Shown: positions 40,530 to 56,800 of the stretch, piece by piece | Position numbering within the stretch: the first letter of the stretch is position 1 | Layout: the number at the start of each line of letters is the position of its first letter | Origin: Patescibacteria group bacterium | GTDB lineage: Bacteria > Patescibacteriota > Saccharimonadia > Saccharimonadales > 2-12-FULL-41-12 | Assembly: GCA_038064875.1 (NCBI GenBank) | Contig: JBBTSC010000001.1 | Location: forward strand, 251,004 to 315,003 | Reading direction: 5' to 3' | DNA: 64,000 nt | The notes under the pieces: generated by a model | The model's database searches: none | Told to the model about the DNA's origin: nothing | The model's input: the letters and a program-made list of their open reading frames with translations, nothing else | Translations under genes and position numbers: made by a program

Positions 40530-40958
40530 TTACTCTAGCTCTCCTAAATCCTTTAGTGCCTTTTTCAAGGAGATGATCGCCTTTCTGGCTTGCTCAGGTT
40601 TCAGCTTTAACTCAGGATTCTCTCGTACTTTCTGAGAAAGTTTGTGGGCGAACCACAACGATTCGTTGTCACCAAATTTTGCTTGCATATCTACAAGATT
40701 CTCTCCAGTTTTTTTACTAGCTGATCCATGTTTCTGGCAAGCAAGCCCTAGTATCTCATCTGCGACAATTATCGCTTCGTTCCACTTGGTCTTGTCTTTT
40801 ACCATTTTCTCGACCTCTCGCCACTTGTCGGATATGGTTGAAGTGTGCGTCTTTTTTCTAAATAAAAACTTCTTTACCAAAAAAGCTATTACTATCGACA
40901 AGACTAGACAACCGACTACCAACCCCGCAATTAACTCAAATGACAAATTAAATATCAT
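40530..40958 (-). CDS. Hypothetical single-pass membrane protein embedded in the gatCAB operon
   Basis: 142 aa with an N-terminal TM (LIAGLVVGCLVLSIVIAFLV) and a helical cytoplasmic part. Its start overlaps the gatA stop by 4 bp and its stop abuts the gatB ATG. Confidence 0.6.
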   Translation of the reverse strand: MIFNLSFELIAGLVVGCLVLSIVIAFLVKKFLFRKKTHTSTISDKWREVEKMVKDKTKWNEAIIVADEILGLACQKHGSASKKTGENLVDMQAKFGDNESLWFAHKLSQKVRENPELKLKPEQARKAIISLKKALKDLGELE

Positions 40959-42710: not shown

Positions 42711-44681
42711 TTACTTGCTAATTAATTTTTTGATTTCCTGGATCTGATCACGAAGCTCGGCTGCTTTTTCGAACTCTAGATTAGCACTAGCCAAATCCAT
42801 CTGGCGCGACAAATCACGAACTAAGTGTTTGTATTCATCTTTTGGAATTTTCTTCAGATCAAGCTTTGACTTTTGAGAATCTGGATAATCTGGGCGCATG
42901 CCTTTTTCGATAGCTTTAGCGATGGTGGCTGGAGTGACATTGTGTTTTTTGTTATAAGCCTCTTGGACTGCTCGTCGTCTATTTGTCTCGTCAATCGCAC
43001 GAGTCATGCTACCAGTCATATTGTCAGCATACATAATTACTCGGCCATCTTGATGTCTGGCTGCTCGTCCGATGGTTTGTATCAGTGCTGTATCACTCCG
43101 AAGGAACCCTTCTTTATCAGCATCCAAGATTGCCACTAAATTAACTTCTGGTAGATCAAGCCCCTCTCTAAGCAAGTTAATCCCGACCAAAACGTCGTAA
43201 ACTCCCATCCTCAGATCTCGTAGTATATCGCTTCGGTCAAGTGTATCGACATCGCTATGGAGATAAGCTACTTTAATACCGATCTCTTCTAGATGTTCGC
43301 TTAAATCCTCGGCCATTCTTTTTGTTAGGGTAGTTACCAAAACTCGATGGCCTCCTTCTATAGTAATTCTAATCTCAGATATGAGATCTTCCACTTGTTT
43401 GCCAACTGGGCGCACTTCTATAGCTGGGTCAAGGAGACCTGTTGGCCGGATAATTTGCTGGACTGGCTCTGGGGAACGTTCAAGCTCATAGTCAGCCGGT
43501 GTTGCACTGACATACACAACATTATTGATATGTTTTTCAAACTCTTCAAATTTCAAAGGCCTATTATCAAGAGCGCTTGGTAATCGAAATCCATGTTCTA
43601 CTAGGGTCTCTTTGCGTGCTCGATCGCCGTTATACATACCACGGACCTGGGGCAAGCTCATATGAGATTCGTCGACAAACATTAAGTAATCATCGGGATA
43701 ATAGTCGAGTAATGTGGCGGGCTGATCTCCCTCTTCGCGATCTGTAAGATATCTACTATAATTCTCAATTCCTTTGACGAACCCTGTTTGTTCCATCATC
43801 TCAATATCAAAGTTTGTTCGTTGCTCGATCCTTTGAGCTTCAAGAAGCTTTTGATGCTTATTGAAATACTTAAGTCTTCCGTCAAGCTCGTCCTTTATCT
43901 TCTTGATAGCTACCTTGAGCTTTTCATTTGGTGTGACGTAGTGACTCCCAGGAAAAATCTTTATCACCTTCTCGTTGGACAGAATTTCTCCTGTCAGTGG
44001 ATCAATCTTAGTAATACGATCTACTTCATCACCAAAAAACTCAACGCGGTAGGCTATCTCTTCACTTGCTGGAAAAATATCCACGACGTCCCCCCGTGCC
44101 CGGAATGTTGCACGGTGGAAATCAATATCATTTCGCTGATACTGAATATCGGTTAAATGACGAAGTAGCTTATCTCTTTTTCTCTGCTCGCCCACTTTTA
44201 TGGTAACCGATAGGTCCCCATAATCCTGGACTGAACCAATTCCATAAATACAGCTAACGCTAGCGACGATCAACACATCTTTTCTCGATAACAATGATGC
44301 TGTAGCAGAGTGACGCAGACGATCAATCTCTTCATTTATCTGACTGTCTTTTTCAATGTATGTATCACTCCTAGCGATGTAAGCTTCCGGCTGGTAGTAA
44401 TCAAAATAACTAACGAAATAATGAACCGCGTTGTCAGGGAAAAAATTCTTAAATTCATTATATAGTTGGGCTGCCAGGGTTTTGTTGTGTACGAGCACAA
44501 GTGTTGGTTTTTGGATTTGCTCGACAACATTAGCCATAGTAAAAGTTTTACCAGTACCAGTAGCTCCTAGAAGTGTCTGTTGGCTTACGCCGTTTTTAAT
44601 ATTCTTTACCAGATCAGCAATAGCCTGTGGCTGGTCGCCACCGGGCTTAAAATCACTTTTGAGAACAAATTTAGCCATCAT
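42711..44681 (-). CDS. uvrB: Excinuclease ABC subunit B
   Basis: Walker [11 protein letters not shown], helicase motifs, beta-hairpin region and C-terminal UVR domain ([11 protein letters not shown]). Tandem ATGs at 44681 and 44678. Confidence 0.97.
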
Positions 44682-44788
44682 TTAATTGTATCATTATGTA
44701 AGATAATAGGTCGTTGGGATTAATTACTTGATCATTAATTCTAGCAAACATTGGAAAGGGAGGATCACGAGTCCGTAAGTGCGAGTCT

Positions 44789-44824
44789 AAGGAGGTGAAA
44801 AACCTTTCTGGGTTTTCCCTCCTT
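44789..44824 (-). terminator. Strong hairpin 4 nt after the LOG-like gene stop (possible terminator, no clear T-run)
   Basis: Minus strand reads AAGGAGG-GAAAACC-CAGAAA-GGTTTTT-CA-CCTCCTT, about 14 bp with one bulge. It is followed by AGACTCG rather than a U tract. Confidence 0.4.
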
Positions 44825-44828
44825 AAGT

Positions 44829-45404
44829 TTATGTATAAATTTTTAAATATTTTTTGTTGCGCTTGTCGAGTATAGCTATCAGTTGGACAATCAAATCAGC
44901 TGGATCTTCACTAAAGACAACATTGTCTGCCTTTGACTCGCCAGCGACCCGCAGTAAATCCATGATCTCATTACTAATCCCTCCTGCGCCTTGTAGGAAG
45001 CCAATTGGCGTATCTGTCTCCATCGCTATAGTGAATTCATGAAGTGTACCTAGCCTGCCACCAATACTGACAACCGCATCACTCGAGTTGATCAAAAGAG
45101 AGTCGCGACCAACATAGTGAAGGCCAGTATACAAAATAGTGTCATAACTTTGGGTAGGCAGTCTGTACTTAACAACATGTTCAATCTTACTGGCTGCAGG
45201 GCTGATACCCACGCTCATTTTCCCACCATGTTTTTTGTAGCCTTCAGCTGCAAAATTTGGCAGACCAATCGTGGCACCTGTCATCAAGACTTGATTAGCC
45301 TTCGCCAGAGCTGTTCCGGCCTGAATTGCTAAATGTCTGCCCTCTTCCACACTGGCGCCTTTTGCTGCTCCTGATATACATATCTGATAGATCGAAGTAT
45401 TCAC
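44829..45404 (-). CDS. LOG/TIGR00725-like Rossmann-fold protein (lysine-decarboxylase-like family)
   Basis: 191 aa with an N-terminal ICISGAAKG nucleotide-binding-like loop and IGGRLGTLHEF, which resembles the LOG PGGxGTxxE motif. Confidence 0.72.
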   Translation of the reverse strand: MNTSIYQICISGAAKGASVEEGRHLAIQAGTALAKANQVLMTGATIGLPNFAAEGYKKHGGKMSVGISPAASKIEHVVKYRLPTQSYDTILYTGLHYVGRDSLLINSSDAVVSIGGRLGTLHEFTIAMETDTPIGFLQGAGGISNEIMDLLRVAGESKADNVVFSEDPADLIVQLIAILDKRNKKYLKIYT

Positions 45405-46543
45405 AAACGCACCCCACCCTTCAGGTATTCATATGACAATCTATCCCAGATTTCTTGCTGTGCAGTATGTATGTACCTCTGTGCAAATTCAAAATTGTTG
45501 CTGGAATTCGTTACAACATCAAGTAGATTTAGAGAAACTAATTCTTTGTCGCCAAATACCACTTGATCAAATTTATGCCAAGGTACATTAAATTCAAAAT
45601 ACTCTTTTAAGATGTCAGCGGGTCTATCTATTTTCTCGTCGATTATCAATGGGTCATCAATACTTGTTTTTGCCATCTCGCGGTAAATAGATGGCCACTG
45701 CATAGATAATTCGTCTGTGGTACCATCTCTGATACCAGAAAACACAGCTCTTGAAAATTTTTTGCCAAAATCTTTACCAAAACTCAAATAATTAAAATAG
45801 CTACCGCACAAACGGAGTTGATATACTCCATCTAAGATCGCAGTTAAGTAAGTGATAGAGTCGTTTTTAAATCGCCTCTTAGCAGGAATAAGGGACAAAT
45901 CCCCTACTTCTGAAGTTTGTCTAACTAGATAACTACCTTCAATCTTTGCATGCTTCATCCTCTCTCTAGATTTTAGGGGTACAAGTGATATGTGAATATC
46001 CTGAATATGGAAATCGCTACCGACTAGATTGGAGCAAAACCTGGCGTATTCTTTTTGCCATTCTGTACTTTCTAACTCTTTAGCAACCGAGATGATAAGC
46101 CCATCAGATTCACGTTTCAAAAGTGAATCGACTGATCTATATCCTAGAATTTTCATAATTTTTTTTGGCGGTTGCTTTTTTATATACCCTTTAATCTTTG
46201 CCGGCTTCATGAAATAGCTTTCCCCAACTACTCGTTTGGTCTTTAGGAAAGATAATATTTTTCTTATTACTTCATCTGGAGTGGATTCACTACTAACTCC
46301 AAGAGACTTTTCGATGATAGTATTTTCTTTATCTAAAAGATGATTAAGAGCGTGATAAACTTCCTTCGAAGACGCGTCTTCTGCAAGACCTAAGTAAGCC
46401 AATATTTCTTTAGAGCTGTTTTTAATTTGGTGTGTTAAGCGTATATCAATAGATTTCCTACCCGACTTAACTTCCCAATCATTTATATGGTGACGGAAGT
46501 CTACCTCAGGTGCCTCAAAAAGTTGTATGAGAAATTTGGTCAT
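45401..46543 (-). CDS. Hypothetical protein (380 aa)
   Basis: Long ORF whose stop overlaps the LOG-like start by 4 bp. It lies 25 nt downstream of the PfkB kinase. No motif I can assign. Confidence 0.6.
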   Translation of the reverse strand: MTKFLIQLFEAPEVDFRHHINDWEVKSGRKSIDIRLTHQIKNSSKEILAYLGLAEDASSKEVYHALNHLLDKENTIIEKSLGVSSESTPDEVIRKILSFLKTKRVVGESYFMKPAKIKGYIKKQPPKKIMKILGYRSVDSLLKRESDGLIISVAKELESTEWQKEYARFCSNLVGSDFHIQDIHISLVPLKSRERMKHAKIEGSYLVRQTSEVGDLSLIPAKRRFKNDSITYLTAILDGVYQLRLCGSYFNYLSFGKDFGKKFSRAVFSGIRDGTTDELSMQWPSIYREMAKTSIDDPLIIDEKIDRPADILKEYFEFNVPWHKFDQVVFGDKELVSLNLLDVVTNSSNNFEFAQRYIHTAQQEIWDRLSYEYLKGGVRL

Positions 46544-46568
46544 TAATTTTCATTTCTTCTTTAGTAAC

Positions 46569-47573
46569 TTATATTTTTGTTGGGTGGTAGGATGATGGAG
46601 CTTTTTTGAGTAGTTCTGCGAGCTCGTGCTCTGTTAGCAAGCCTTCTTGAGCACCTACGTGCTGAACTACATTCATAGAACTTATTGGTGCCCACTGCAG
46701 AGCGCCATCAATAGTATTGCCTCTGATTATTGAAGCAACGAAAGTAGAGGTGAAAGCATCACCTGCCCCTGTTCTCTCAACTGGCGGGGCTGGGTCTGGG
46801 TAGAGAGGCATGCTGTATCTATTGGTGCCATCACTGGCATAGCTACCGTTTGGCCCATCGCTAATAACAACAATCTTGGGCCCGAGAGCATGGAGTCTAT
46901 CAAATAAATCGTTGAGATTATCATAGCTACCACCTGTAACAAAAACTGCCTCCTCACGGTTAAGAGCAACTAGTTCTGCTCGTGCATACACACGTTTCAT
47001 CCGCTCAACACCCACTTCCATCTGAAAAGTACCTGGCTGAAAAGCCAATTTAATCTCTGGGTGTCTCTCCAACGACTCAATCATTTCATCATGATATTCA
47101 AGCGCGTGCTTTGAGATAGAACTAAAGTATATCCACTTTGGCATTTCATGTTTTCGAAGGTGTGGCCAGTGATAATCATAATCTTCATGCTTGATTAAGA
47201 TAGTCCTCTCGTCTTTGTACCACAGCACGTAATGATAATTACTCTTCTTGCCTGGATTTAGTGTTACAAACCTAGTGTCTACGCCTTCTTTTTTTAGATG
47301 GCTAATGATCCCCCGGCCTTCTCTGTCATCACCAACATTTGATACTAGGCCTACATTAAAGCCAAGTCGAGCAAAGTTCACAGCAGCGTTCGGAGCATTA
47401 CCTACAGCCTCTAGCACCTCGACATGATCGTAAGGTATCTTTGTGCCAAAATCCATTGCCAGCTTCTTGCCACTACCTTCTTGATCTAGAACTTCGGCAC
47501 GATCATCCAACAACTTTATAAAAGCATCTGTGACAACATCTCCGACACATAGCACCTCAATCTGTTGACTCAA
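46569..47573 (-). CDS. PfkB-family carbohydrate/nucleoside kinase
   Basis: N-terminal GDVVTD and C-terminal TGAGDAF anion-hole motif. The AGGAGG at 47585-47580 favours TTG 47573 over the track GTG 47579. Confidence 0.85.
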   Translation of the reverse strand: MSQQIEVLCVGDVVTDAFIKLLDDRAEVLDQEGSGKKLAMDFGTKIPYDHVEVLEAVGNAPNAAVNFARLGFNVGLVSNVGDDREGRGIISHLKKEGVDTRFVTLNPGKKSNYHYVLWYKDERTILIKHEDYDYHWPHLRKHEMPKWIYFSSISKHALEYHDEMIESLERHPEIKLAFQPGTFQMEVGVERMKRVYARAELVALNREEAVFVTGGSYDNLNDLFDRLHALGPKIVVISDGPNGSYASDGTNRYSMPLYPDPAPPVERTGAGDAFTSTFVASIIRGNTIDGALQWAPISSMNVVQHVGAQEGLLTEHELAELLKKAPSSYHPTKI

Positions 47574-47705
47574 TCCCACCTCCTAGTTGTTTACTGTTTG
47601 ATATATTGTGACATACAGCAACACATTTTATCAAGTACCTCCGGGACTTTTTTATTATAGTTTTGGTATAATAGACGTATTATTTAATAGAACTGCGAGG
47701 GAATT

Positions 47706-48719
47706 GTGAGCGATCTATCTACAAAACTGCAAAATGTCGGACTAAATACAAAAATAATTGCGGCCTTGGATGAGAGCCCAGGAACTATTGCCAACAGACT
47801 TACTTCTGTCGGACTCACGCCAAGTGTGGAGTTAGCAGAGAAATATCGTGACGATTTAATTACGGCCGAAGGTATTGAAAATTATGTAGGTGGCATTATC
47901 CTGCATCCTTCAACTGCCAACCAAACAATAGATGGTCAAAACGCTGTTGCTCTGCTTAACTCAAAGGGCGTTGGCACCTTTGTAAAAGTAGACCAAGGAG
48001 TAGAAACAGACCCATCAAACGGATATAACGTGACTAAAGGATTTGATACTTTGGAGCAACAACTAAATGAGGCCAAAGCACTCGGGGCTGTAGGTGCAAA
48101 ATGGAGAAGTTTTATAGCTGTTGCCGACCCAGCTGACCCACTATATCAAGAAAATGTCAAAGCTAACGCTGATGGTTTAGCAAAGTATGCAAAAGCTAAC
48201 CAAGTTTTAGAGCTCATTCCGATTGTTGAGCCAGAAATATCTTTTGCAAAAATGAACCCTGCGCACGCCGGCGGAGTGCACACCATCGAAGAATCTGAGG
48301 CATCAGCACGGTATGTTCTAGCTGAGACTGTGAGTGCTATGCAAAATGAAGGCGTAGACCTATCAGCAATCATTCTAAAGATTGGATTTGTCTTGCCAGG
48401 CAAAGACACAGTCAGTGAAACAACTCCTCTTAACTATGAAGATATTGCAACAAGGACTCTTAGCGTGATCAGAGATGTACTGCCAAAAGATCTTAAAACC
48501 ATCGTTTTCCTCTCTGGAGGTCTCAATATACCAGACGCAACAGGATGTCTAAGGGCAATTAACGAAATTGCAAACGCTGACGACCCAATACTAAGCGCAA
48601 GTTACGGACGTGGCGTCCAAGCTGAGGCGCTTAAAAAGTTTGCTGTAGACGACCACGCAGGCACTCAAAGTGAATTCCTAAGCGCGTCTCAGGCCAATGC
48701 TTCAGTCCTCCGCAAATAA
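47706..48719 (+). CDS. Class I (Schiff-base) fructose-bisphosphate aldolase-like protein
   Basis: IIAALDESPGTIANRL, YRDDLITAEGIENYVGGIILHPST and FVKVDQG parallel the class I FBA motifs (AADESxGTxxKRL, YRxxL, IKVDKG). GTG start with a GAGGG Shine-Dalgarno sequence and TGGTATAAT upstream. Confidence 0.78.
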   Translation: MSDLSTKLQNVGLNTKIIAALDESPGTIANRLTSVGLTPSVELAEKYRDDLITAEGIENYVGGIILHPSTANQTIDGQNAVALLNSKGVGTFVKVDQGVETDPSNGYNVTKGFDTLEQQLNEAKALGAVGAKWRSFIAVADPADPLYQENVKANADGLAKYAKANQVLELIPIVEPEISFAKMNPAHAGGVHTIEESEASARYVLAETVSAMQNEGVDLSAIILKIGFVLPGKDTVSETTPLNYEDIATRTLSVIRDVLPKDLKTIVFLSGGLNIPDATGCLRAINEIANADDPILSASYGRGVQAEALKKFAVDDHAGTQSEFLSASQANASVLRK

Positions 48720-48727
48720 CTAGCTAT

Positions 48728-49633
48728 TTAAGACTTGGCCTTATTAGCTGAGCCGAACATATCTATCTTGTCCTCTACAACTTCTTGTACCGCGCCGATA
48801 ACTTCGTCCATTAGCTTTACAACAGCAAATTCTTTGGGATGCTCTTTTAGAACTTTTTCGAGTGTCTTTCTGTAGGCAATCCTCATATCGGAATTAATAT
48901 TTATCTTGGTTACGCCTATGATGGCAGCGTTTTTGAAATAATGTCCTGGGGTACCGCTACCGCCATGAAGGCTAATATTGCACCCAATAGATGCTCTTAC
49001 CCGGCTCAGGAGCTCAAGGTCTAATATTTTGGGTACTGGATATGAGCCATGCAAATTACCAATAGCAACCGCGAAGGTATCAATACCCGTAGCATCAACA
49101 AATGCTTTCGCTCCTTCGGGTGTAGAGAAAGTATTCTTTATCTCCTCGTAGTCAATTGTTTCTTCATGCACATTAGAACTACCGCCAAAATAATGTGGCT
49201 CACTCTCAACAATGGCGCCAGTTTTTTTAGCATACTCGACTACTTCTTTAGTCTTGGCAATTATCTCTTCTTCTGTGGCCTTTTTGTCCGCTTGAGAAAT
49301 ATCAATATGGATGAATTCATAACCTGCATCTATGGCTTCCTTGCAGGACTCTACGGATGGGCTGTGGTCTAAATTAATATACATTTCAAGCCCAAGCTCT
49401 TGACGATAATTATCAACCATATCTCTAACATTTTCTATGCCAATAGCATCGACTTCACCTTGGCTGACTTCAACTAGTACCGGAGAATTTTTTGCAACGG
49501 CTGCTCTTGCCACTGCTTTTAGGGTGTCTTGGTTATCCAGATTAAACGCTCCTACTGCAAAATGCTCCTTGCGCGCTCTGGCCATAAGGTCTCGTGCCTT
49601 GGCTGTATTCTTTTTTATTTCTTCTATCCCCAC
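48728..49633 (-). CDS. Class II (metal-dependent) fructose/tagatose-bisphosphate aldolase
   Basis: FAVGAFN, NLDHS and LHGGSG motifs of the class II FBA/TBP aldolase family. Confidence 0.88.
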   Translation of the reverse strand: MGIEEIKKNTAKARDLMARARKEHFAVGAFNLDNQDTLKAVARAAVAKNSPVLVEVSQGEVDAIGIENVRDMVDNYRQELGLEMYINLDHSPSVESCKEAIDAGYEFIHIDISQADKKATEEEIIAKTKEVVEYAKKTGAIVESEPHYFGGSSNVHEETIDYEEIKNTFSTPEGAKAFVDATGIDTFAVAIGNLHGSYPVPKILDLELLSRVRASIGCNISLHGGSGTPGHYFKNAAIIGVTKININSDMRIAYRKTLEKVLKEHPKEFAVVKLMDEVIGAVQEVVEDKIDMFGSANKAKS

Positions 49634-49647
49634 CCTTTTATCCTCAG

Positions 49648-50613
49648 CTAATCTACTATCTTATGAACCGATAATTTTATGTGATGAGACGTAAGACCAA
49701 AGTCTTCTAATAATTCTTGAGGTGTGCCAGACTCACCAAACCTATCATGCACCCCCAGTCTTGTTATAGGTGTTGGGTGATTTTCTGCCAACAGCTCTGC
49801 AACAGCACCTCCGAGGCCTCCGGCAACCTGGCCTTCTTCTACAGTTATAACCTTTTTTGTCTTTTTAACACTTTTTAGGATTGTTTCATTGTCGAGCGGT
49901 TTTATAGTCGGCACATGAACAACTTCGACCTCGATACCCTGCTTGAACAACTGTTCGCTAGCTATCAAAGCCTGAGCAGTCATAGTCCCTGTAGATATAA
50001 TAGTCACGTCAGAACCTTCGGAATATACATAGGCTTTACCAATTTCAAATGGTGTTTTGTCTGTTGTAATAATCGGACTGGCTTCACGGGCAAGTCGCAG
50101 ATATGAAGGTCGTCCGTCTTTGGCAAGAGCCATGGTAGCTCTCTCAGCTTCAGGACCATCACAAGGCGCTATCACAACCATGTTTGGCAAAACTCTCATC
50201 AATGCTATGTCCTCTAGCATCTGGTGAGTCGCACCATCTGGTCCGACAGAGATACCAGCGTGTGACCCAACGACATTCACTGGCTGGTTGTTCAGGCATA
50301 TTGTTGTTCGTATTTGCTCCCAGTTACGACCTGGGCTAAACGCTGCATAACTACTGACAAAAGGTATCTTGCCCTGAGCTGCTAGACCAGACCCAACTGT
50401 GACTAAGTTCTGCTCTGCCACACCAATTTCTACAAACCTCTCTGGGAATTCTTTGGCAAACAAGTGCATTTGGGTAGATTCTGTCAGATCGGCACAAGCT
50501 GCCACAACATCATCATCAATCTGTCCGGCTTTTAGAAGTCCACGCCCAAAACCTTTTCTGGTTGGTTCTTTATCAAGTTCTTTAGAGATATCAGCTAAAT
50601 TTAGGTCGCTCAT
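49648..50613 (-). CDS. Transketolase, C-terminal (pyrimidine-binding) subunit
   Basis: 321 aa. Homology to the Pyr and C-terminal transketolase domains (GVAEQNLV, FSPGRNWEQIR). Confidence 0.92.
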   Translation of the reverse strand: MSDLNLADISKELDKEPTRKGFGRGLLKAGQIDDDVVAACADLTESTQMHLFAKEFPERFVEIGVAEQNLVTVGSGLAAQGKIPFVSSYAAFSPGRNWEQIRTTICLNNQPVNVVGSHAGISVGPDGATHQMLEDIALMRVLPNMVVIAPCDGPEAERATMALAKDGRPSYLRLAREASPIITTDKTPFEIGKAYVYSEGSDVTIISTGTMTAQALIASEQLFKQGIEVEVVHVPTIKPLDNETILKSVKKTKKVITVEEGQVAGGLGGAVAELLAENHPTPITRLGVHDRFGESGTPQELLEDFGLTSHHIKLSVHKIVD

Positions 50614-51458
50614 TATTTGTCCGCCTCCTTGAGAGAATCAAGCGCTTTTTCTGCCTCTTCTTTATTTGGCGGTTTACCGTGCCAAGTGTAGTCGCCTTCC
50701 ATGAAATCAACGCCTTTGCCCGGAACAGTATGAGCAATTAACACAGTTGGACGTTCTTTAGATGTCTTGGCGAGGTTAATAGCATCAAGCACTGCTTCCA
50801 TATTATTGCCGTCTATATCTACTGCGTTCCAGCCGAATGCGTCCCACTTTTTCTTCAAATCACCGAGTGGCATCACGTCTTCTGTATTTCCATCTATTTG
50901 GATATTGTTGCGATCAACGATTCCTATAATATTATTCAGGTTATATTTAGGTGCCAACATCGCTGCTTCCCAAATATTACCCTCATTTAGTTCCCCGTCA
51001 CCCATGACAACATAAATATATCGATTTTTCTCTTTGTTCATCCGCATAGCTAGCGCCATCCCACAGGCTTGCGATAAGCCACAACCAAGCGGACCACTTG
51101 TATTTTCAAGTCCTGGCAAAGTATGTCTCTCTGGGTGACCCTGCAGTCTAGACTTATGTTTGCGCAGCGTCATCAGCTCCTTACGATCAAAAAATCCTGC
51201 GTGAGCCATAGTTGCATACTGTACAGGTACACAGTGACCATTACTCAGTAGCAATATGTCTCTGTCGGCAAGTTGGGGGTTTTTCGGGTCATAGTGCATG
51301 ATATCAAAATAAAGAGCGGTGAATATGTCTGATAAGCCAAGTGGCCCTGCACTGTGACCTGATTTAGCTTCTTCAAGCATCTTAATAATATCAACGCGAA
51401 TTTCGTTCGCCTTTTTTTCCAATTGCTCAATAGTAAGTGTTTTTGTTTGCCCTGTCAT
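50613..51458 (-). CDS. Transketolase, N-terminal (TPP-binding) subunit
   Basis: 281 aa with GHSAGPLG and GDGELNEGNIWEA TPP-binding motifs. It overlaps the C-terminal subunit gene by 1 bp. Confidence 0.92.
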   Translation of the reverse strand: MTGQTKTLTIEQLEKKANEIRVDIIKMLEEAKSGHSAGPLGLSDIFTALYFDIMHYDPKNPQLADRDILLLSNGHCVPVQYATMAHAGFFDRKELMTLRKHKSRLQGHPERHTLPGLENTSGPLGCGLSQACGMALAMRMNKEKNRYIYVVMGDGELNEGNIWEAAMLAPKYNLNNIIGIVDRNNIQIDGNTEDVMPLGDLKKKWDAFGWNAVDIDGNNMEAVLDAINLAKTSKERPTVLIAHTVPGKGVDFMEGDYTWHGKPPNKEEAEKALDSLKEADK

Positions 51459-51496: not shown

Positions 51497-52144
51497 TTAA
51501 AATTGCAGAGTTTTAACTGCCTTCTCAACTATTTCTGAATTATCTGGATCTCCTTGTAACATGGAGTAGTTAACGATGTACGACTTTCCGTTTTTTTTGA
51601 ATTCATACTTTGTAGTCTTTATTAGGCCTGTACCATTTAGCGTGTCCTCTTGAGAACCCACCGCCTTTTCGCCTTTTTGCCCATTTGATAGAACAAACTC
51701 AGATACAGCGCTTCCAGGAATAGTGTAACTACTGGCCATCTCAAATACTCCTACTGTAAGCCTATGGGGGGCATCACTACCCGGGACTTTATCTGTAGTT
51801 ATCACTGGTGGTTGGCCCTTTTTGTACGTAATATCAACAGGGTCCAATGAGCTTATGAAGCGATCTTGCTCAGGATCATTATTGAGTTTCCAACCATCAG
51901 GAACTCTCATTTTTAATGCTTTTTTCGAAGATATTATTTCTTTCCAACCAAGAGACTCGTCTTTTGGATGTTCTTCCTTCTTGATTGTTTCTTTTTTTGT
52001 TGGTTCTGATGACTGCGACGAATCATTATTTGTGTTTTTGTTAGCATTGTAAACATAAAAACCAGTGAAGCCTATCAGTGTCATGGCTATCACAACGAGC
52101 AAACCCTCAATTATCGTAAAACCATTTTGATTATTATCTTTCAT
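51497..52144 (-). CDS. Type IV pilin / pseudopilin-like protein
   Basis: Prepilin N-terminal cleavage/methylation motif G-FTIIE followed by a hydrophobic helix (GLLVVIAMTLIGF). Confidence 0.75.
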   Translation of the reverse strand: MKDNNQNGFTIIEGLLVVIAMTLIGFTGFYVYNANKNTNNDSSQSSEPTKKETIKKEEHPKDESLGWKEIISSKKALKMRVPDGWKLNNDPEQDRFISSLDPVDITYKKGQPPVITTDKVPGSDAPHRLTVGVFEMASSYTIPGSAVSEFVLSNGQKGEKAVGSQEDTLNGTGLIKTTKYEFKKNGKSYIVNYSMLQGDPDNSEIVEKAVKTLQF

Positions 52145-52174: not shown

Positions 52175-52816
52175 TTATACCTGTGACTTGTCAATTAAGT
52201 CCATTATTTTGTCGTAGTTGGCCTGTGGATTATCAGCCTTCTGTATGTATCCACCAGCATTTAAGACATCTATCCCGCCGTCTGCCAGTTGTTTTGCGTT
52301 CTGATCGCTTACACCGCCATCCCAACCAATTTCAACTTCAGGATGATGTTCTTTTATCTCTTTAACTTTACTAAGAAGCCCAAGATCTGGCTGACCTCCA
52401 AAGTATCCCAACTTTCCGCCAAACACCAAAATATGATCAAAGCTATGGATAATCTGCTCAACGGAATCAACGGTTGTGTCTGCGAGTATAGCGAGTCCTG
52501 CCTTGATATCAGCCTTGTGAAGCTCGGCTGCAAAATGCATATGATGCACATCTGCCTCCGCATGAATAATTACCATATGGGGTTTTAGCTTAATAAGTTG
52601 CTGTATGTAATCGTGTGGCTTTTGGTACATTAAATGTACGTCTGCCAATATGTCGGCTGGCCACCATACTTTATCTATATCAACTGATTTGCTCGGTGCA
52701 AAAACACCATCCATGAGATCAACTTGGATTCTCTTTGTTACTGAAGTTGCAATTTTGAGCTGAGAATTATATTCCTCTTCTGTGCTTGCCAATACCGTCG
52801 GACATAGTACTGCCAC
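52175..52816 (-). CDS. rpe: Ribulose-phosphate 3-epimerase family protein (divergent)
   Basis: IQVDLMDGVFAP and DVHLM match the RPE metal/substrate motifs (HxDxMDGxFVPN, DxHLM). GTG start with GAGG upstream. Confidence 0.72.
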   Translation of the reverse strand: MAVLCPTVLASTEEEYNSQLKIATSVTKRIQVDLMDGVFAPSKSVDIDKVWWPADILADVHLMYQKPHDYIQQLIKLKPHMVIIHAEADVHHMHFAAELHKADIKAGLAILADTTVDSVEQIIHSFDHILVFGGKLGYFGGQPDLGLLSKVKEIKEHHPEVEIGWDGGVSDQNAKQLADGGIDVLNAGGYIQKADNPQANYDKIMDLIDKSQV

Positions 52817-52819
52817 GAA

Positions 52820-53293
52820 CTAAACCTCATCAATTTTATTAATTCGTCGTTGATGTCTTTCGTCTTCGCTGAAAGGCGTCTCTAGCCAAATCCTAACAGC
52901 CTCTTTGATTTCATCAAATTTTACAAACCTAGCACCTATACTTAGCATATTTGCATTATTGTGTTGGCGGTTAAGCCGTAAAATCTCATATGGGTCTTCT
53001 GATTGATCACTGTGTGCTGTTTGTTTTCCGTAATAAAGGCCACAGCGCACTCCCTTGACACGGTTGGCAACCATCGCTTCACCTTGCCCACTCATGCCAA
53101 AAATAATACCTACTTCGCACTCACCGCTGGCCACTGCTTCAGCACAAGGACGAATAAAATCTGGATAATCATCTGTTGCCACGTACTCTTTGGGACCATA
53201 ATCTACAACTTCGTGCCCTATCTCCTCCAAGAAGGAGACTAGTTGTTTAACTGCTTCGAAACCTGCATGGTCGGTACTAACGGCTATTTTCAT
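52820..53293 (-). CDS. rpiB: Ribose-5-phosphate isomerase B
   Basis: MKIAVSTDHAGFE N-terminus and the RpiB/LacAB fold length. It overlaps the gap stop by 4 bp. Confidence 0.9.
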   Translation of the reverse strand: MKIAVSTDHAGFEAVKQLVSFLEEIGHEVVDYGPKEYVATDDYPDFIRPCAEAVASGECEVGIIFGMSGQGEAMVANRVKGVRCGLYYGKQTAHSDQSEDPYEILRLNRQHNNANMLSIGARFVKFDEIKEAVRIWLETPFSEDERHQRRINKIDEV

Positions 53294-54330
53294 GCTGGTG
53301 ACTCGCCTCGGCCACCCTCTTGTATTAATTTTCCAACATCTGCTACCTGCTCAACAAGCCGGTTACTATAACCCCATTCATTGTCGTACCAGACGACTAC
53401 CTTGCCCAGGTTGCCAGCAACCACGTTTGTCAAAAGCAAATCAACAATGCCTGAATGACTATTGCCGATGTAGTCTCCACTCACCAGTGGCACATCGCTC
53501 GTATCTATAATCCCCTGATAGAAAGGCTCCGAAGCTGCCTTCTTCAAAATCGCGTTTATCTCGTCTTTGTCAGTGTCTCTTTTGAAAACAATTGTCACAT
53601 CGCTGAGTGACACAACAGGGGTTGGTACACGCACACTCATGCCATCAAATTTGCCTTGAAGCTGAGGAACAGTTTTCGCAACCGCGATGGCTGCACCAGT
53701 TGTGGTCGGCACAATATTCTCGGCTGCATTTCGCCCTTCACGTAGGTCTTTCAACGGCGCATCTTGCAAAGCTTGTGAGGCAGTATAGCTGTGAACTGTA
53801 GTAAGCATAGCTTTTTCAATTCCGATTGCTTGGTCAAGGATAGACATAACAGCTGCCACAGAATTTGTAGTACAGCTCGCATTGCTAATAACAGGTGTAG
53901 AAGTCTTTAGTTTTTCTTCATTTGCTCCGTAAACAATGGTGTCAACGCCTTCGCTCTTGCTCGGACCAGAGATAACAACTCGTTTTGCCCCAGCTTTGAT
54001 ATGAAGCTCTGCGTCCTCTTGCTTGGTAAATCGACCAGTACATTCGATTACCACATCGACACCTAGCTGACCCCATGGCAAAGCACTTGGATCTTTCTCT
54101 GCAAGCACCTGGATCTTTTGGCCCTGAACAATTATGTTGCCTTCATCTGATTGAACATCACGTGGATATGTTCCGTAGTTACTGTCATATTTGAGTAAAT
54201 GTGCCAATGTTTTTGTGTCTGTTAAATCATTTATTGCTACAATCTCAAGATCAGTTCTATCAAATGCTATCTTAAAAGCACTTCGCCCAATTCTACCAAA
54301 ACCATTTATTGCAACCTTTGTTTTCGCCAT
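53290..54330 (-). CDS. gap: Glyceraldehyde-3-phosphate dehydrogenase
   Basis: INGFGRIGR, SNASCTTN and WYDNEWGYS. ATG 54330 has an AAGGGTG Shine-Dalgarno sequence at good spacing; the track start is GTG 54336. Confidence 0.96.
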   Translation of the reverse strand: MAKTKVAINGFGRIGRSAFKIAFDRTDLEIVAINDLTDTKTLAHLLKYDSNYGTYPRDVQSDEGNIIVQGQKIQVLAEKDPSALPWGQLGVDVVIECTGRFTKQEDAELHIKAGAKRVVISGPSKSEGVDTIVYGANEEKLKTSTPVISNASCTTNSVAAVMSILDQAIGIEKAMLTTVHSYTASQALQDAPLKDLREGRNAAENIVPTTTGAAIAVAKTVPQLQGKFDGMSVRVPTPVVSLSDVTIVFKRDTDKDEINAILKKAASEPFYQGIIDTSDVPLVSGDYIGNSHSGIVDLLLTNVVAGNLGKVVVWYDNEWGYSNRLVEQVADVGKLIQEGGRGESPA

Positions 54331-54365
54331 GTTCACACCCTTTTGTTAGTTAACTATTAGTGACA

Positions 54366-54932
54366 TTATAAACTATCGTATTCAGGTAGGGCAACTAGCT
54401 CTTCTAAAGAGTTGACCCGGTCAAATACTGGTTTTGCAAACCTAACATACTCGTTTTCATCATCACAAAGTTTTTTCACCTCATCAAAATCCTTGAGTAT
54501 AACTTCTATCTTCTCACCTGGATCTGGCTTCTGCTCTCCACGAGAAGTCAAATTCTGTGCTAGATAATACAGATTGGAATACTCCATACGAGGGATATTG
54601 TTCTGAACATAAATCAGCTTCCAGTCCGCAAAAGCCATTCCTGTCTCTTCCAGTAGCTCCCTTTTTGCGCCAGTCAACCAATCCTCCCCAGGCTCAACTT
54701 TGCCACTAGGAAAAGTAAGGGTCATACCACGATGAGGCTGTTCATCCTTCAAAATAACAATCTTGTTATCAACTATAGCTATAGTCCCAGCTGTATCTTG
54801 ACGTTTGAGCATTTCAAAAGTAGCGGACGACCCATCATAAAGCTCTTGCTCCCATTGATACACATCAAACATCTCACCTTTAAATACTAATTTAGCATTT
54901 TCAGGAATTATATTTTTGTTAGTATTCTTCAT
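54366..54932 (-). CDS. NUDIX hydrolase
   Basis: Nudix box GKVEPGEDWLTGAKRELLEETG. Confidence 0.85.
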   Translation of the reverse strand: MKNTNKNIIPENAKLVFKGEMFDVYQWEQELYDGSSATFEMLKRQDTAGTIAIVDNKIVILKDEQPHRGMTLTFPSGKVEPGEDWLTGAKRELLEETGMAFADWKLIYVQNNIPRMEYSNLYYLAQNLTSRGEQKPDPGEKIEVILKDFDEVKKLCDDENEYVRFAKPVFDRVNSLEELVALPEYDSL

Positions 54933-55679
54933 TTATAAATTATCCGCCAGTGAATTTAATTGATCATGTATAGTTGGTGCACTAGCAACTATACTTCTAT
55001 CTCTCCAGTCATACGTATCTTTACCAAAATTCGTAACCACTCCTCCAGCTTCTCTGATGATTACAGCCCTAGGAACATAGTCCCAAACCTCTCCCATCTC
55101 ACCGTTTGTTATATATCCATCAACCGCTCCTCTGGCAACATCAACTACGAATCCTGACAAATGAACCCTAAACACGCCTTGATCCATTAGCAAGTTAATC
55201 AACTTTCTATTAACGTGGGTTCTTACATACGCTTTTTTTATCGGGCGATCCGATACATGTATGACTTTTCCATCACAATATGCTCCTTTACCGTCTATTG
55301 CAAAATAAAAATTATCTAACGCAAAATTATATACAACGCCAAGCACTGGTTTATCATCAACTATCAGACTTATCATTGTTGAGCAGTAAGGTAGGCCTCT
55401 GATAAAGGCCTGAGTGTCATCTATCGGGTCTACAGTCCAGAAAGTTCCACCTGGCTCGCCACCGTACTCTTCCCCAACTATTTTAATAGATGGGTCTATG
55501 CCCTCAAGCAGATCTCTAATTTCTCGCTCTAACTTTTTATCCATTTCTGTGACAACATCATTATGATGTGACTTTGTCTCATGTGGGATATTTCCATAAA
55601 GGCCCATAACCTCTGTTCTTTTACTACGCAGAAACTTTTCGAGCTTGTCGATTGCTTCTTTATAAAATTTGTCAGACAC
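54933..55679 (-). CDS. Inositol monophosphatase / FBPase-family phosphatase
   Basis: DVVTEMD, VGEE and WTVDPIDDTQAFIRG (a variant of WxxDPIDGT). GTG start overlaps the ppa stop by 1 nt, and its stop abuts the NUDIX start. Confidence 0.83.
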   Translation of the reverse strand: MSDKFYKEAIDKLEKFLRSKRTEVMGLYGNIPHETKSHHNDVVTEMDKKLEREIRDLLEGIDPSIKIVGEEYGGEPGGTFWTVDPIDDTQAFIRGLPYCSTMISLIVDDKPVLGVVYNFALDNFYFAIDGKGAYCDGKVIHVSDRPIKKAYVRTHVNRKLINLLMDQGVFRVHLSGFVVDVARGAVDGYITNGEMGEVWDYVPRAVIIREAGGVVTNFGKDTYDWRDRSIVASAPTIHDQLNSLADNL

Positions 55680-56200
55680 TATTTACTCCAGGCTTGGATG
55701 CATTCTTCTATGATTTTGTGAGCTTCTGTGGCGTCACCCCAACCTTTAGAAATAGTTGAGCCAGGTTTTTTAAGATCCTTGTAGTGAGTGAAGTGATGTT
55801 CTATTTTCTTGAGCAAAGTTGGTGACACATCCGGCAAATCATTTATCTCATTTGCGATGTTGCGATCATCTTCTGGTACGCATAAGATTTTGTGGTCCAT
55901 CTCGCCATCATCTTCAAATTTCATGACACCAATTACCTTGGCTTTTAGATATACGCCCATAGGTATCGCTTCTTCTGCAAGTACTAATGTATCAAGCGCA
56001 TCGCCGTCTTCGTCCAACGTGTTCGGAATAAACCCGTAGTTGCCAGGCTTGGCAAAAATACTTGGTTCAACCCGATCCAAAAAGAAAGCTTTATTTTCTC
56101 TATCATATTCAATCTTTGCTGTTGAGCCTTTGGTAATTTCAATAACAGTGTTGATGATTTTACCTTCTGCGTATGGTTGTAGAAATGCATCGTAGTCCAA
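55679..56200 (-). CDS. ppa: Inorganic pyrophosphatase, family I
   Basis: 173 aa with DGDALDTLVL and the conserved acidic active-site pattern. Confidence 0.93.
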   Translation of the reverse strand: MDYDAFLQPYAEGKIINTVIEITKGSTAKIEYDRENKAFFLDRVEPSIFAKPGNYGFIPNTLDEDGDALDTLVLAEEAIPMGVYLKAKVIGVMKFEDDGEMDHKILCVPEDDRNIANEINDLPDVSPTLLKKIEHHFTHYKDLKKPGSTISKGWGDATEAHKIIEECIQAWSK

Positions 56201-56239
56201 AATATATCCTTTTCGTATTATTTCTTTTGCTTAATTATA

Positions 56240-56800
56240 TCACTTTTCTAGATTGGGAAGAACAAGCCCAAGCAGTACGCCAACACTTCGCCATTCATGC
56301 ATTTCGCCTCGCTCAATTGCCTCTTTAAGTTCTTTGACGCCCATCCAAGTCACTTCTACATCCTCGCCGTGCTCCAATTGTTGCCCTTCAGGGTGCTCCT
56401 CATAATCTTTGACTTCAAAATAATACAAATCCCACTCTACAGTCGCACCAGCTTTTGCCACAGTCAGGAGCTTTAAATCCTTAACGACTAGCCCTGTTTC
56501 CTCAACCGCCTCTTTTTTAGCACCTTTGATAGCTTCTTCTACCATATCGGCGTTCTTATCCAACAATTCATGAAGTTCTGGCAAACTATCAACAACCTTG
56601 CCTCCTGGCAATCGCAAGTCAACCTTACCATTTTCTTGTCTGAATTCACGGGTAATGAGTATTTTTTTATCAGGTGAAATGATTATGAGTCGTGTTCCAG
56701 GTGGCCTACGATATCTTTCAAAAACACGTCCGTCAGGTTGCTTTGTATGCACAACCTCCCCAATTTTTCCATGAAATACTGATTCTTCGTTATTTGCCAT
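56240..56800 (-). CDS. NUDIX hydrolase with an insertion in the Nudix box
   Basis: GGKV...(insert)...AKKEAVEETG. The Nudix box is recognisable but carries an insertion of about 18 aa between the G and the REx2EE part. Confidence 0.78.
   Translation of the reverse strand: MANNEESVFHGKIGEVVHTKQPDGRVFERYRRPPGTRLIIISPDKKILITREFRQENGKVDLRLPGGKVVDSLPELHELLDKNADMVEEAIKGAKKEAVEETGLVVKDLKLLTVAKAGATVEWDLYYFEVKDYEEHPEGQQLEHGEDVEVTWMGVKELKEAIERGEMHEWRSVGVLLGLVLPNLEK

Follow-up and report, generated by a model that had tools for sequence, protein, structure and literature searches.

A protein family almost confined to Saccharibacteria is a probable partner of LOG-superfamily enzymes at the end of a pentose phosphate gene block

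This work concerns three adjacent genes in a 64,000-nucleotide (nt) stretch of DNA from a Patescibacteria group bacterium of the order Saccharimonadales (contig JBBTSC010000001.1 of assembly GCA_038064875.1, positions 251,004 to 315,003), referred to here as the window. The genes encode a PfkB-family kinase, a protein of 380 amino acids (aa) that belongs to no known family (referred to here as X), and a LOG-like Rossmann protein of the SLOG cluster4 type (referred to here as SLOG4). Our main finding is that X is very likely a dedicated partner, either an accessory subunit or a domain, of a LOG-superfamily enzyme. SLOG4, to which X is translationally coupled, appears to play this part in the window; in other lineages, it appears to fall to a canonical LOG of the TIGR00730 type whose gene adjoins that of X or which is joined to the C terminus of X. 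The real functional unit is X together with the LOG-superfamily protein. While the PfkB and SLOG components belong to known superfamilies, what is new is X itself—a large family almost confined to Saccharibacteria contigs that has neither a Pfam entry nor a recognizable fold—and its fusion-backed link to LOG enzymes. The three genes are as follows.

46569-47579, minus strand: PfkB-family carbohydrate kinase, 336 aa, GTG start, with AGGAGG ahead of the start
45401-46543, minus strand: X, 380 aa, no known family, mostly helical with a small beta-sheet
44829-45404, minus strand: SLOG4, a SLOG cluster4/TIGR00725-like Rossmann protein, 191 aa, GTG start

An initial annotation, made from the letters of the window alone, had placed a three-gene unit here. 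All three open reading frames (ORFs) exist as it described them and lie on the minus strand, and the 25-nt spacer between PfkB and X and the 4-bp overlap (GTGA) between the X stop and the SLOG4 GTG start are both seen in the sequence. A Shine-Dalgarno-like AGGGTGGGG lies inside the 3' end of X, just upstream of the SLOG4 start.

Evidence linking X to LOG-superfamily proteins

The order GAPDH-RpiB-Rpe-TktN-TktC-FBA-PfkB-X-SLOG-UvrB-GatCAB recurs in 85 Saccharibacteria loci (GAPDH, glyceraldehyde-3-phosphate dehydrogenase; FBA, fructose-bisphosphate aldolase; TktN and TktC, the two parts of a split transketolase). Adjacency alone proves little, since uvrB and gatCAB, which have no functional relation to the block, are equally constant neighbors across the loci. 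The link between X and LOG proteins rises above this background synteny because it is also expressed in same-strand coupling, in a sample centered on SLOG, in displacement by canonical LOG genes, and in gene fusions. X is followed by a codirectional SLOG4 gene in 70 of the 85 loci, and the gaps are mostly -4, -1, or 0 nt. In an independent, SLOG-centered sample of 80 metagenome loci, X lies upstream in every one of the 73 loci that leave room to see it. Among the 11 X loci that lack a SLOG4 match, 8 carry a canonical LOG gene (GGGxGIMEA...PGGFGT[LMF]DE) directly after X.

The fusions are widespread. In P0033 and at least 119 further clusters at 90% identity, X and a C-terminal canonical LOG form a single protein of 643 to 684 aa. 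Among these clusters are TM7i, Saccharimonadaceae, and Microsaccharimonas sequences; the NCBI name of the proteins is "TIGR00730 family Rossman fold protein." The two fusions whose surroundings were checked lie at the same genomic position, with PfkB/FBA on one side and uvrB on the other. Co-conservation of the genes, which the initial annotation had proposed to follow through gene order in other genomes, is thus borne out across Saccharibacteria by the 85 loci and by the SLOG-centered sample. The association of X with the LOG-like protein emerges strengthened by the translational coupling, the canonical LOG found in the same slot, and the fusions.

X is a family without a recognizable fold

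X has no match in Pfam, NCBIfam, PADLOC, PHROGs, or the PDB sequences (the last searched both with phmmer and by profile hmmsearch), and 88 family members scanned singly against Pfam revealed no recurring weak family. An AlphaFold2 model of X, computed with 18 homologues as input, is confident and mostly helical with a small sheet (pLDDT, 87.9; predicted TM-score [pTM], 0.88). Comparison of this model to the PDB and BFVD using Foldseek gave nothing at an E value of <=0.001 (best E values of 1.6 and 0.1, with TM-scores of <=0.19); terpene-synthase-like rows in the output were scattered and were judged to be noise. The initial annotation had been unable to place the 380-aa protein and had held that a match to a known unrelated family would speak against its unit. 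The library searches and Foldseek agree with it on the first point and returned no such match. A protein identical to X is listed at NCBI as a "hypothetical protein" of a Patescibacteria metagenome-assembled genome, and no description of X was found in the searchable literature.

A word-indexed search retrieved 18 relatives of X. An exhaustive profile search, which covered 1.84 billion representative sequences, retrieved 930 clusters at 50% identity (E <= 1e-3), 480 of which scored below 1e-30. Scanning the GTDB species representatives gave 88 confirmed X loci, of which 80 were kept, and nearly all were labeled Saccharibacteria or Saccharimonadales. The few other labels are probably binning errors, since the contigs in question carry the same syntenic block. 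The X of the window is homologous to the family over its full length and carries the residues E24, D33, E61, K113, P126, E158, W162, D177, W283, W322, D342, and Y373. It belongs to a divergent short subfamily (378 to 382 aa; P0002-P0007) that is 23 to 30% identical to the typical form of 410 to 420 aa. X is also the fastest-evolving gene of the block, with a mean pairwise identity across 34 loci of 42%, compared to 58% for SLOG4, 66% for PfkB, and 81% for UvrB. Two longer sequences were noticed in passing: in P0020 (582 aa), part of the N-terminal region of X occurs a second time ahead of the X protein itself, and the C-terminal tail of P0141 (535 aa) is of low complexity and resembles a frameshift artifact.

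Conserved positions of X

Conservation within X is concentrated in one stretch.

46109-46171, minus strand: most conserved stretch of X, PPKKIMKILGYRSVDSLLKRE, residues 125-145, holding 10 of the 17 invariant alignment columns

In standalone X proteins, the most constrained element reads PPKKxMKxLGYRSVDSLLKRE. Four of its positions, R136, S137, S140, and K143, are 95 to 98% conserved in 160 standalone X sequences but only ∼30 to 37% conserved in 30 fused ones, where they are occupied by varied residues; phylogenetic nonindependence of the sequences is a caveat to this comparison. The 12 residues enumerated above, on the other hand, are invariant or nearly so in standalone and fused forms alike. 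We infer from these patterns that the basic, Ser-rich patch formed by R136, S137, S140, and K143 is a candidate docking surface for a separate LOG partner, because its conservation is relaxed in fused X, where tethering would make docking dispensable. The 12 shared positions may instead form a functional site that is X's own.

The LOG-like partner

SLOG4 matches Pfam PF18306 (SLOG cluster4) with 97 bits against a cutoff of 26.3 (1.1e-27) and reaches 77.4 bits against NCBIfam TIGR00725, for which the cutoff is 106.9. It stays below PF03641 (15.9 versus 27 bits) and the LOG equivalog NF058542 (18.6 versus 300 bits). By these profile scores, the protein classifies as a divergent member of the SLOG4 group. 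The GGxxGTLxE-type motif that the initial annotation had picked out is present in the form GGRLGTLHE.

45036-45107, minus strand: LOG-type catalytic region of SLOG4, with R100 (YVGRD) and GGRLGTLHE (residues 115-123) ending in E123

Read as IGGRLGTLHE, this region retains the Glu of the LOG motif PGGxGTxxE as well as the upstream Arg. When aligned with a canonical LOG (FFGRK...PGGFGTLDE), R100, G116, G119, and E123 are invariant, and R100 and E123 do not vary among 16 SLOG4 proteins. We take these two residues to correspond to the catalytic Arg and Glu of LOG enzymes. Conservation is high over the protein as a whole: an alignment of 16 sequences, with identities as low as 42%, has 45 invariant columns.

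The nearest solved relatives of SLOG4 are an uncharacterized Thermotoga maritima protein (1rcu; 1.6e-10) and the molybdenum cofactor (MoCo) carrier protein of Chlamydomonas (2iz5; 5e-4). A homologue search found 2339 sequences; among the matches listed, there were only close Saccharibacteria relatives. Literature searches returned no paper for TIGR00725 and none for Saccharibacteria combined with TIGR00730. Catalysis by SLOG4 appears plausible but not certain, since the Arg and Glu are kept, the GGGxGxMG motif is replaced, and the closest relatives are the uncharacterized 1RCU and a MoCo carrier.

The PfkB kinase

The kinase matches Pfam PF00294 over residues 58-314 (2.4e-33; 116.2 bits against a cutoff of 25.8). 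It carries the (D/T)xGAGD anion-hole motif (TGAGDAF, within ...VERTGAGDAFTSTF...) and an NxxE motif (NREE, within ...LVALNREEAVF...). Its best NCBIfam matches are iolC and ribokinase, all of them far under their cutoffs; it scores 81.7 bits against ribokinase TIGR02152 (cutoff, 299.65), 39.3 against TIGR03168 (cutoff, 216.4), and 37.5 against TIGR03828 (cutoff, 292). The nearest PDB entry is YdjH (3h49; 2e-13).

Of the 74 loci in which the upstream neighbor of X is visible, 72 have a PfkB gene on that side. The spacing ranges from -148 to 1593 nt, a class II FBA gene stands between the two in L079, L082, and L087, and other genes are inserted in 14 loci. These inserted genes were considered as a fourth component and rejected, as they are heterogeneous (haloacid dehalogenase-like, glycosyltransferase-like, and others) and often lie on the opposite strand. 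PfkB adjoins FBA nearly everywhere among the compared loci. Two PfkB subfamilies, only ∼30% identical to each other, share the position ahead of X irrespective of the LOG type: 45 loci have the window type, and 27 have the other (L017, L024, and L045 are examples). Both subfamilies are ribokinase-like and fall under every equivalog cutoff. In L086, the kinase beside a Saccharimonadaceae fusion has a class 2-like NCBIfam profile. No fusion involving PfkB was seen.

Published data on relatives of the kinase point to a role alongside the aldolase. In strain TM7x, TM7x_02415, the orthologous kinase gene beside the aldolase, is predicted to encode a pfkB-type phosphofructokinase (PFK) acting on fructose-6-phosphate and is glucose induced (PMC12815258). 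In transposon sequencing (Tn-seq) of Southlakia, PfkB and FBA have growth defects that are alike and appear late (PMC10633639 supplement), by which the kinase behaves like the aldolase. Saccharibacteria have also been said to lack PFK (PMC6031116). We conclude that PfkB is probably the sugar-phosphate kinase of the block, working with the adjacent aldolase, and not a dedicated third subunit. Of the three-gene unit of the initial annotation, the pair of X and the LOG-like protein is retained; the kinase as a tight member is not, given its loose spacing, the 14 insertions, the intervening FBA, and the two subfamilies.

Locus layout and neighboring genes

On the coding strand, the block runs gapdh-rpiB-rpe-tktN-tktC-fbaII, followed by a divergent class I FBA gene, PfkB-X-SLOG4, and then uvrB-gatCAB.

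53290-54336, minus strand: gapdh
52820-53293, minus strand: rpiB
52175-52816, minus strand: rpe
51497-52144, minus strand: pilin-like gene between tktN and rpe
50613-51458, minus strand: tktN
49648-50613, minus strand: tktC
48728-49633, minus strand: class II FBA gene (fbaII)
47706-48719, plus strand: class I FBA gene, divergent from PfkB
47605-47634, minus strand: promoter-like site (TTGATA, an 18-nt spacer with TG, CACAAT), a consensus match only
44787-44826, minus strand: hairpin without a T-run, right after the SLOG4 stop (-19 kcal/mol; z = -4.4)
42711-44681, minus strand: uvrB, directly downstream of SLOG4 and followed by gatC, gatA, a 142-aa gene, and gatB

The initial annotation had put the three-gene unit at the head of the sugar-phosphate cluster. 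The direction of transcription reverses this: the three genes are the last element, at its 3' end. On consensus matches, PfkB-X-SLOG4 looks like a single transcription unit of its own, because a promoter-like site and a strong ribosome binding site precede PfkB and a hairpin follows SLOG4. The promoter-like site lies in the 126-nt spacer that separates PfkB from the divergent class I FBA gene. The energy of the hairpin was matched by 0 of 200 shuffled sequences, and the structure probably marks the transcript end or stabilizes the transcript. No RNA family of Rfam matched in the region.

Several features of the surroundings are recorded here as observations in their own right. The class I and class II FBA genes stand back to back in the window; comparison with related loci matched a class I FBA in 13 of them, often in the slot that class II otherwise holds. 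The two transketolase genes overlap by one base, and the same split is found in all related loci. The product of the pilin-like gene has the N terminus ...GFTIIEGLLVVIAMTLIGF and no Pfam match, and prepilin-like ORFs resembling it are wedged between X/LOG and uvrB in L014, L019, and L068. Directly upstream of gapdh, positions 54366-56800 (minus strand) encode a Nudix hydrolase, an inositol monophosphatase-family phosphatase (possibly a fructose-1,6-bisphosphatase), an inorganic pyrophosphatase, and a second Nudix hydrolase. Such a set would suit a theme of converting nucleotide derivatives to sugar phosphates; it is not kept in L086 and L087, where a divergent RelA/SpoT gene precedes gapdh. 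Finally, the 142-aa ORF between gatA and gatB (40530-40958, minus strand) has an N-terminal hydrophobic helix and no Pfam match. Genes of 135 to 141 aa without a Pfam match occupy the same position in L002, L005, L086, and L087, and the ORF looks like a conserved unknown within the Saccharibacteria gatCAB operon.

A possible nucleotide-ribose salvage route and its alternatives

Saccharibacteria lack de novo nucleotide and phosphoribosyl pyrophosphate synthesis and rely on external nucleotides (PMC6031116). The most likely activity of the LOG partner, as its residues suggest, would be hydrolysis of nucleoside monophosphates (NMPs), because the catalytic Arg and Glu of nucleoside-5'-monophosphate phosphoribohydrolases are kept. 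The neighboring block as a whole converts pentose phosphates to triose phosphates. In the route that we propose, the LOG partner would cleave scavenged NMPs to a free base and ribose-5-phosphate, which RpiB, Rpe, the split transketolase, aldolase, the PfkB kinase, and GAPDH would carry to triose phosphates and lower glycolysis. PfkB and FBA would supply the fructose-6-phosphate step and possibly also the sedoheptulose-7-phosphate step if transaldolase is truly absent; no transaldolase appears in the searchable annotation text of Southlakia (PMC10633639 supplement). X would control or target the hydrolase through regulation, substrate selection, or assembly, which would be PpnN-like in logic without being homologous. 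We hold this joint reading—NMP hydrolysis, entry of ribose-5-phosphate into the block, and X as a regulator or targeting factor—tentatively, as one that could well hold in full. The initial annotation had offered a salvage route from nucleotide-derived ribose-5-phosphate into the neighboring pentose phosphate and glycolysis genes as one of two readings. It is still the most coherent reading, as SLOG4 keeps the Arg and Glu, although the place of the kinase as a dedicated member of the route is weakened. A more elaborate version strikes us as doubtful: in it, X gates or targets the LOG N-ribohydrolase by means of a fold not seen before, and the ribose of host nucleotides is burned to glycolytic ATP through a transaldolase-free pentose phosphate pathway in which PfkB and aldolase form a sedoheptulose-bisphosphate bypass.

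A number of observations weigh against the X-LOG partnership or the metabolic route built on it. SLOG4 is not a canonical LOG: it scores 27.9 bits against TIGR00730 (cutoff, 96.35; 1.7e-6), the N-terminal GGGxGxMG is changed to TGATIGLP(NFA), and the Pro of PGGxGTxxE is Ile. Some relatives in fold bind a ligand instead of catalyzing a reaction, the MoCo carrier protein 2iz5 among them. The homology of the kinase lies nearer to ribokinase, IolC, and ribose-1-phosphate kinase than to the Pfk-2/1-PFK group. With respect to the partnership itself, 7 of the 8 canonical LOG neighbors are convergent with X and so are not cotranscribed with it, the eighth being codirectional, and L014, L055, and L083 have X without a LOG neighbor. 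AlphaFold2 renders an X-LOG fusion (pTM, 0.61) as two folded modules joined by a disordered linker of ∼50 residues, with no confident fixed interface in the monomer. A mirror-tree/partial Mantel analysis with UvrB as the control put X-SLOG at a partial r of 0.12 and X-PfkB at 0.15, which shows no more coevolution of X with SLOG than with PfkB. In Southlakia epibionticum, SLOG4 directly follows PfkB without X: SEML1_0541-0548 encode FBA, PfkB, a 200-aa SLOG4 named "LOG family protein," five small hypothetical proteins (78 to 216 aa), and UvrB (PMC10633639 supplement). Since Southlakia keeps SLOG4 without X, X is not indispensable for SLOG4 in every lineage. The SLOG4 gene of this species was also nonessential in Tn-seq at all three time points (PMC10633639 supplement). 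Moreover, the very strong background synteny makes a metabolic reading based on context weak when taken alone.

Four alternatives were weighed against the proposed route. X and the LOG protein might constitute a sensor-effector pair (the initial annotation had raised a regulatory or nucleotide-sensing role), in which the SLOG/LOG protein binds a nucleotide-derived ligand with slow or no turnover, while X provides the output by adjusting metabolism or another process. Ligand sensing is known for SLOG domains (ThsA of Thoeris is an example), the related MoCo carrier fold is a binder, and two modules tethered by a flexible linker resemble sensor-effector proteins; the rapid evolution and new fold of X and the dispensability of SLOG4 in Southlakia would fit as well. 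We consider such a pair unlikely, as the catalytic Arg and Glu are strictly kept in both SLOG4 and the canonical LOG partners, X has no recognizable effector domain (nuclease, transmembrane, helix-turn-helix, or NADase), and the pair sits at a fixed core-metabolism locus in >150 loci, not in a variable island. For a role in anti-phage defense in particular, none of the three proteins matched a PADLOC family, and there was no PHROGs match. Somewhat less probable is a salvage unit of three enzymes, in which PfkB acts as a nucleoside or ribose kinase producing NMP or ribose-5-phosphate, the LOG-like protein cleaves NMP, and X catalyzes a third step on the base, nucleotide, or pentose phosphate. 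The near-constant position of PfkB before X (72 of 74 loci) and its similarity to ribokinase, ribose-1-phosphate kinase, and nucleoside kinase, not Pfk-2, favor this unit, and the invariant E24, D33, E61, E158, D177, D342, W162, W283, W322, and Y373 of X could form an active site. Against it stand the loose spacing, the 14 unrelated insertions and the three intervening class II FBA genes, the interchange of two PfkB subfamilies regardless of LOG type, the lack of any PfkB fusion, and the literature preference for a PFK role (PMC12815258); the rapid evolution of X would be unusual for a core catalytic step.

The remaining two alternatives fare worse. It is very improbable that X is a mere conserved neighbor in streamlined, syntenic genomes, unrelated to the LOG-like protein or to sugar-phosphate metabolism. 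The equally constant presence of uvrB and gatCAB, the SLOG4 of Southlakia without X, and the lack of a specific X-SLOG coevolution signal are what one would cite for it; at least 120 clusters of in-frame X-LOG fusions, the loci where another LOG paralogue stands in the place of SLOG4, the prevalence of stop-start overlaps between X and SLOG4, and the specific patch of X that is relaxed in fused forms are not predicted by background synteny and disfavor it. A cytokinin role, in which the LOG-like protein would manipulate plants by activating cytokinin ribotides, is hardly credible here. It is the founding activity of the LOG family, and the LOG of a rhizosphere Saccharibacterium has been read as a cytokinin-activating "Lonely Guy" enzyme (PMC6031116). 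However, X-SLOG4/LOG occurs at the same core locus in activated sludge, many other metagenomes, Saccharimonadaceae, and TM7i-type lineages, and the window protein, a SLOG4-type sequence, scores far under NF058542. The "Lonely Guy" reading of Saccharibacteria LOGs is probably wrong.

Comparison with known systems

SLOG4 shares with the LOG/"Lonely Guy" family (TIGR00730, PF03641) a Rossmann-like SLOG fold, the GGxGTxxE motif, and the upstream Arg, and a bona fide TIGR00730 protein partners X in other Saccharibacteria. It differs in staying below the family cutoffs, in lacking GGGxGxMG, and in having Ile for the Pro of PGG. The best family match of SLOG4 is the TIGR00725/PF18306 group, exemplified by T. 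maritima 1RCU; however, SLOG4 remains under the TIGR00725 cutoff, and no X-like partner has been described for that group.

Escherichia coli PpnN (YgdH), a nucleotide 5'-monophosphate nucleosidase, cleaves NMPs to a base and ribose-5-phosphate, and its flanking domains exert allosteric control. The likeness to the present system lies in a LOG-fold core with extra noncatalytic domains, and the PpnN core matches the LOG domain of an X-LOG fusion (E = 4e-6). We rejected the idea that X is itself a PpnN accessory domain, as hhalign gave a probability of 0.4% and there was no match to Pfam DUF4478 or DUF3412. X also differs in being ∼380 to 420 aa long, exclusively N-terminal, followed by a disordered linker, and often a separate polypeptide, and the partner in the window is a SLOG cluster4 protein instead of a TIGR00730 LOG. 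Nanosynbacter lyticus TM7x likewise has PfkB and class II FBA as neighbors within this syntenic block (TM7x_02415/TM7x_02420), where the PFK assignment is a prediction with qPCR support only (PMC12815258). The window kinase is of the other subfamily and shares ∼30% identity with the class 2 type, which comes after FBA in 27 loci.

Because fusions anchor X functionally to a LOG partner, X is tractable for biochemical and structural work. The annotation of the fusions is also corrected, in that the 645- to 685-aa proteins listed as "TIGR00730 family Rossman fold protein" contain an unrecognized N-terminal domain of 400 aa. Saccharibacteria are obligate episymbionts without nucleotide synthesis, and their energy sources are debated; if true, the proposed reading would supply a concrete route from host nucleotides to ATP, by way of ribose-5-phosphate release at the end of a block that converts pentose to triose phosphates.

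Nucleotide salvage in archaea and bacteria of the candidate phyla radiation (CPR) proceeds through AMP phosphorylase, ribose-1,5-bisphosphate isomerase, and form II-III RuBisCO. None of these three enzymes is encoded within the sugar-phosphate block. Both systems would direct the ribose of scavenged nucleotides to central carbon metabolism in organisms unable to make nucleotides. The route proposed here would differ entirely in its chemistry and its proteins, using hydrolytic cleavage of the N-glycoside to ribose-5-phosphate followed by the nonoxidative pentose phosphate pathway. If the ribose-burning version were true, it would be a lineage-specific route, distinct from the RuBisCO-based salvage of other CPR bacteria and archaea.

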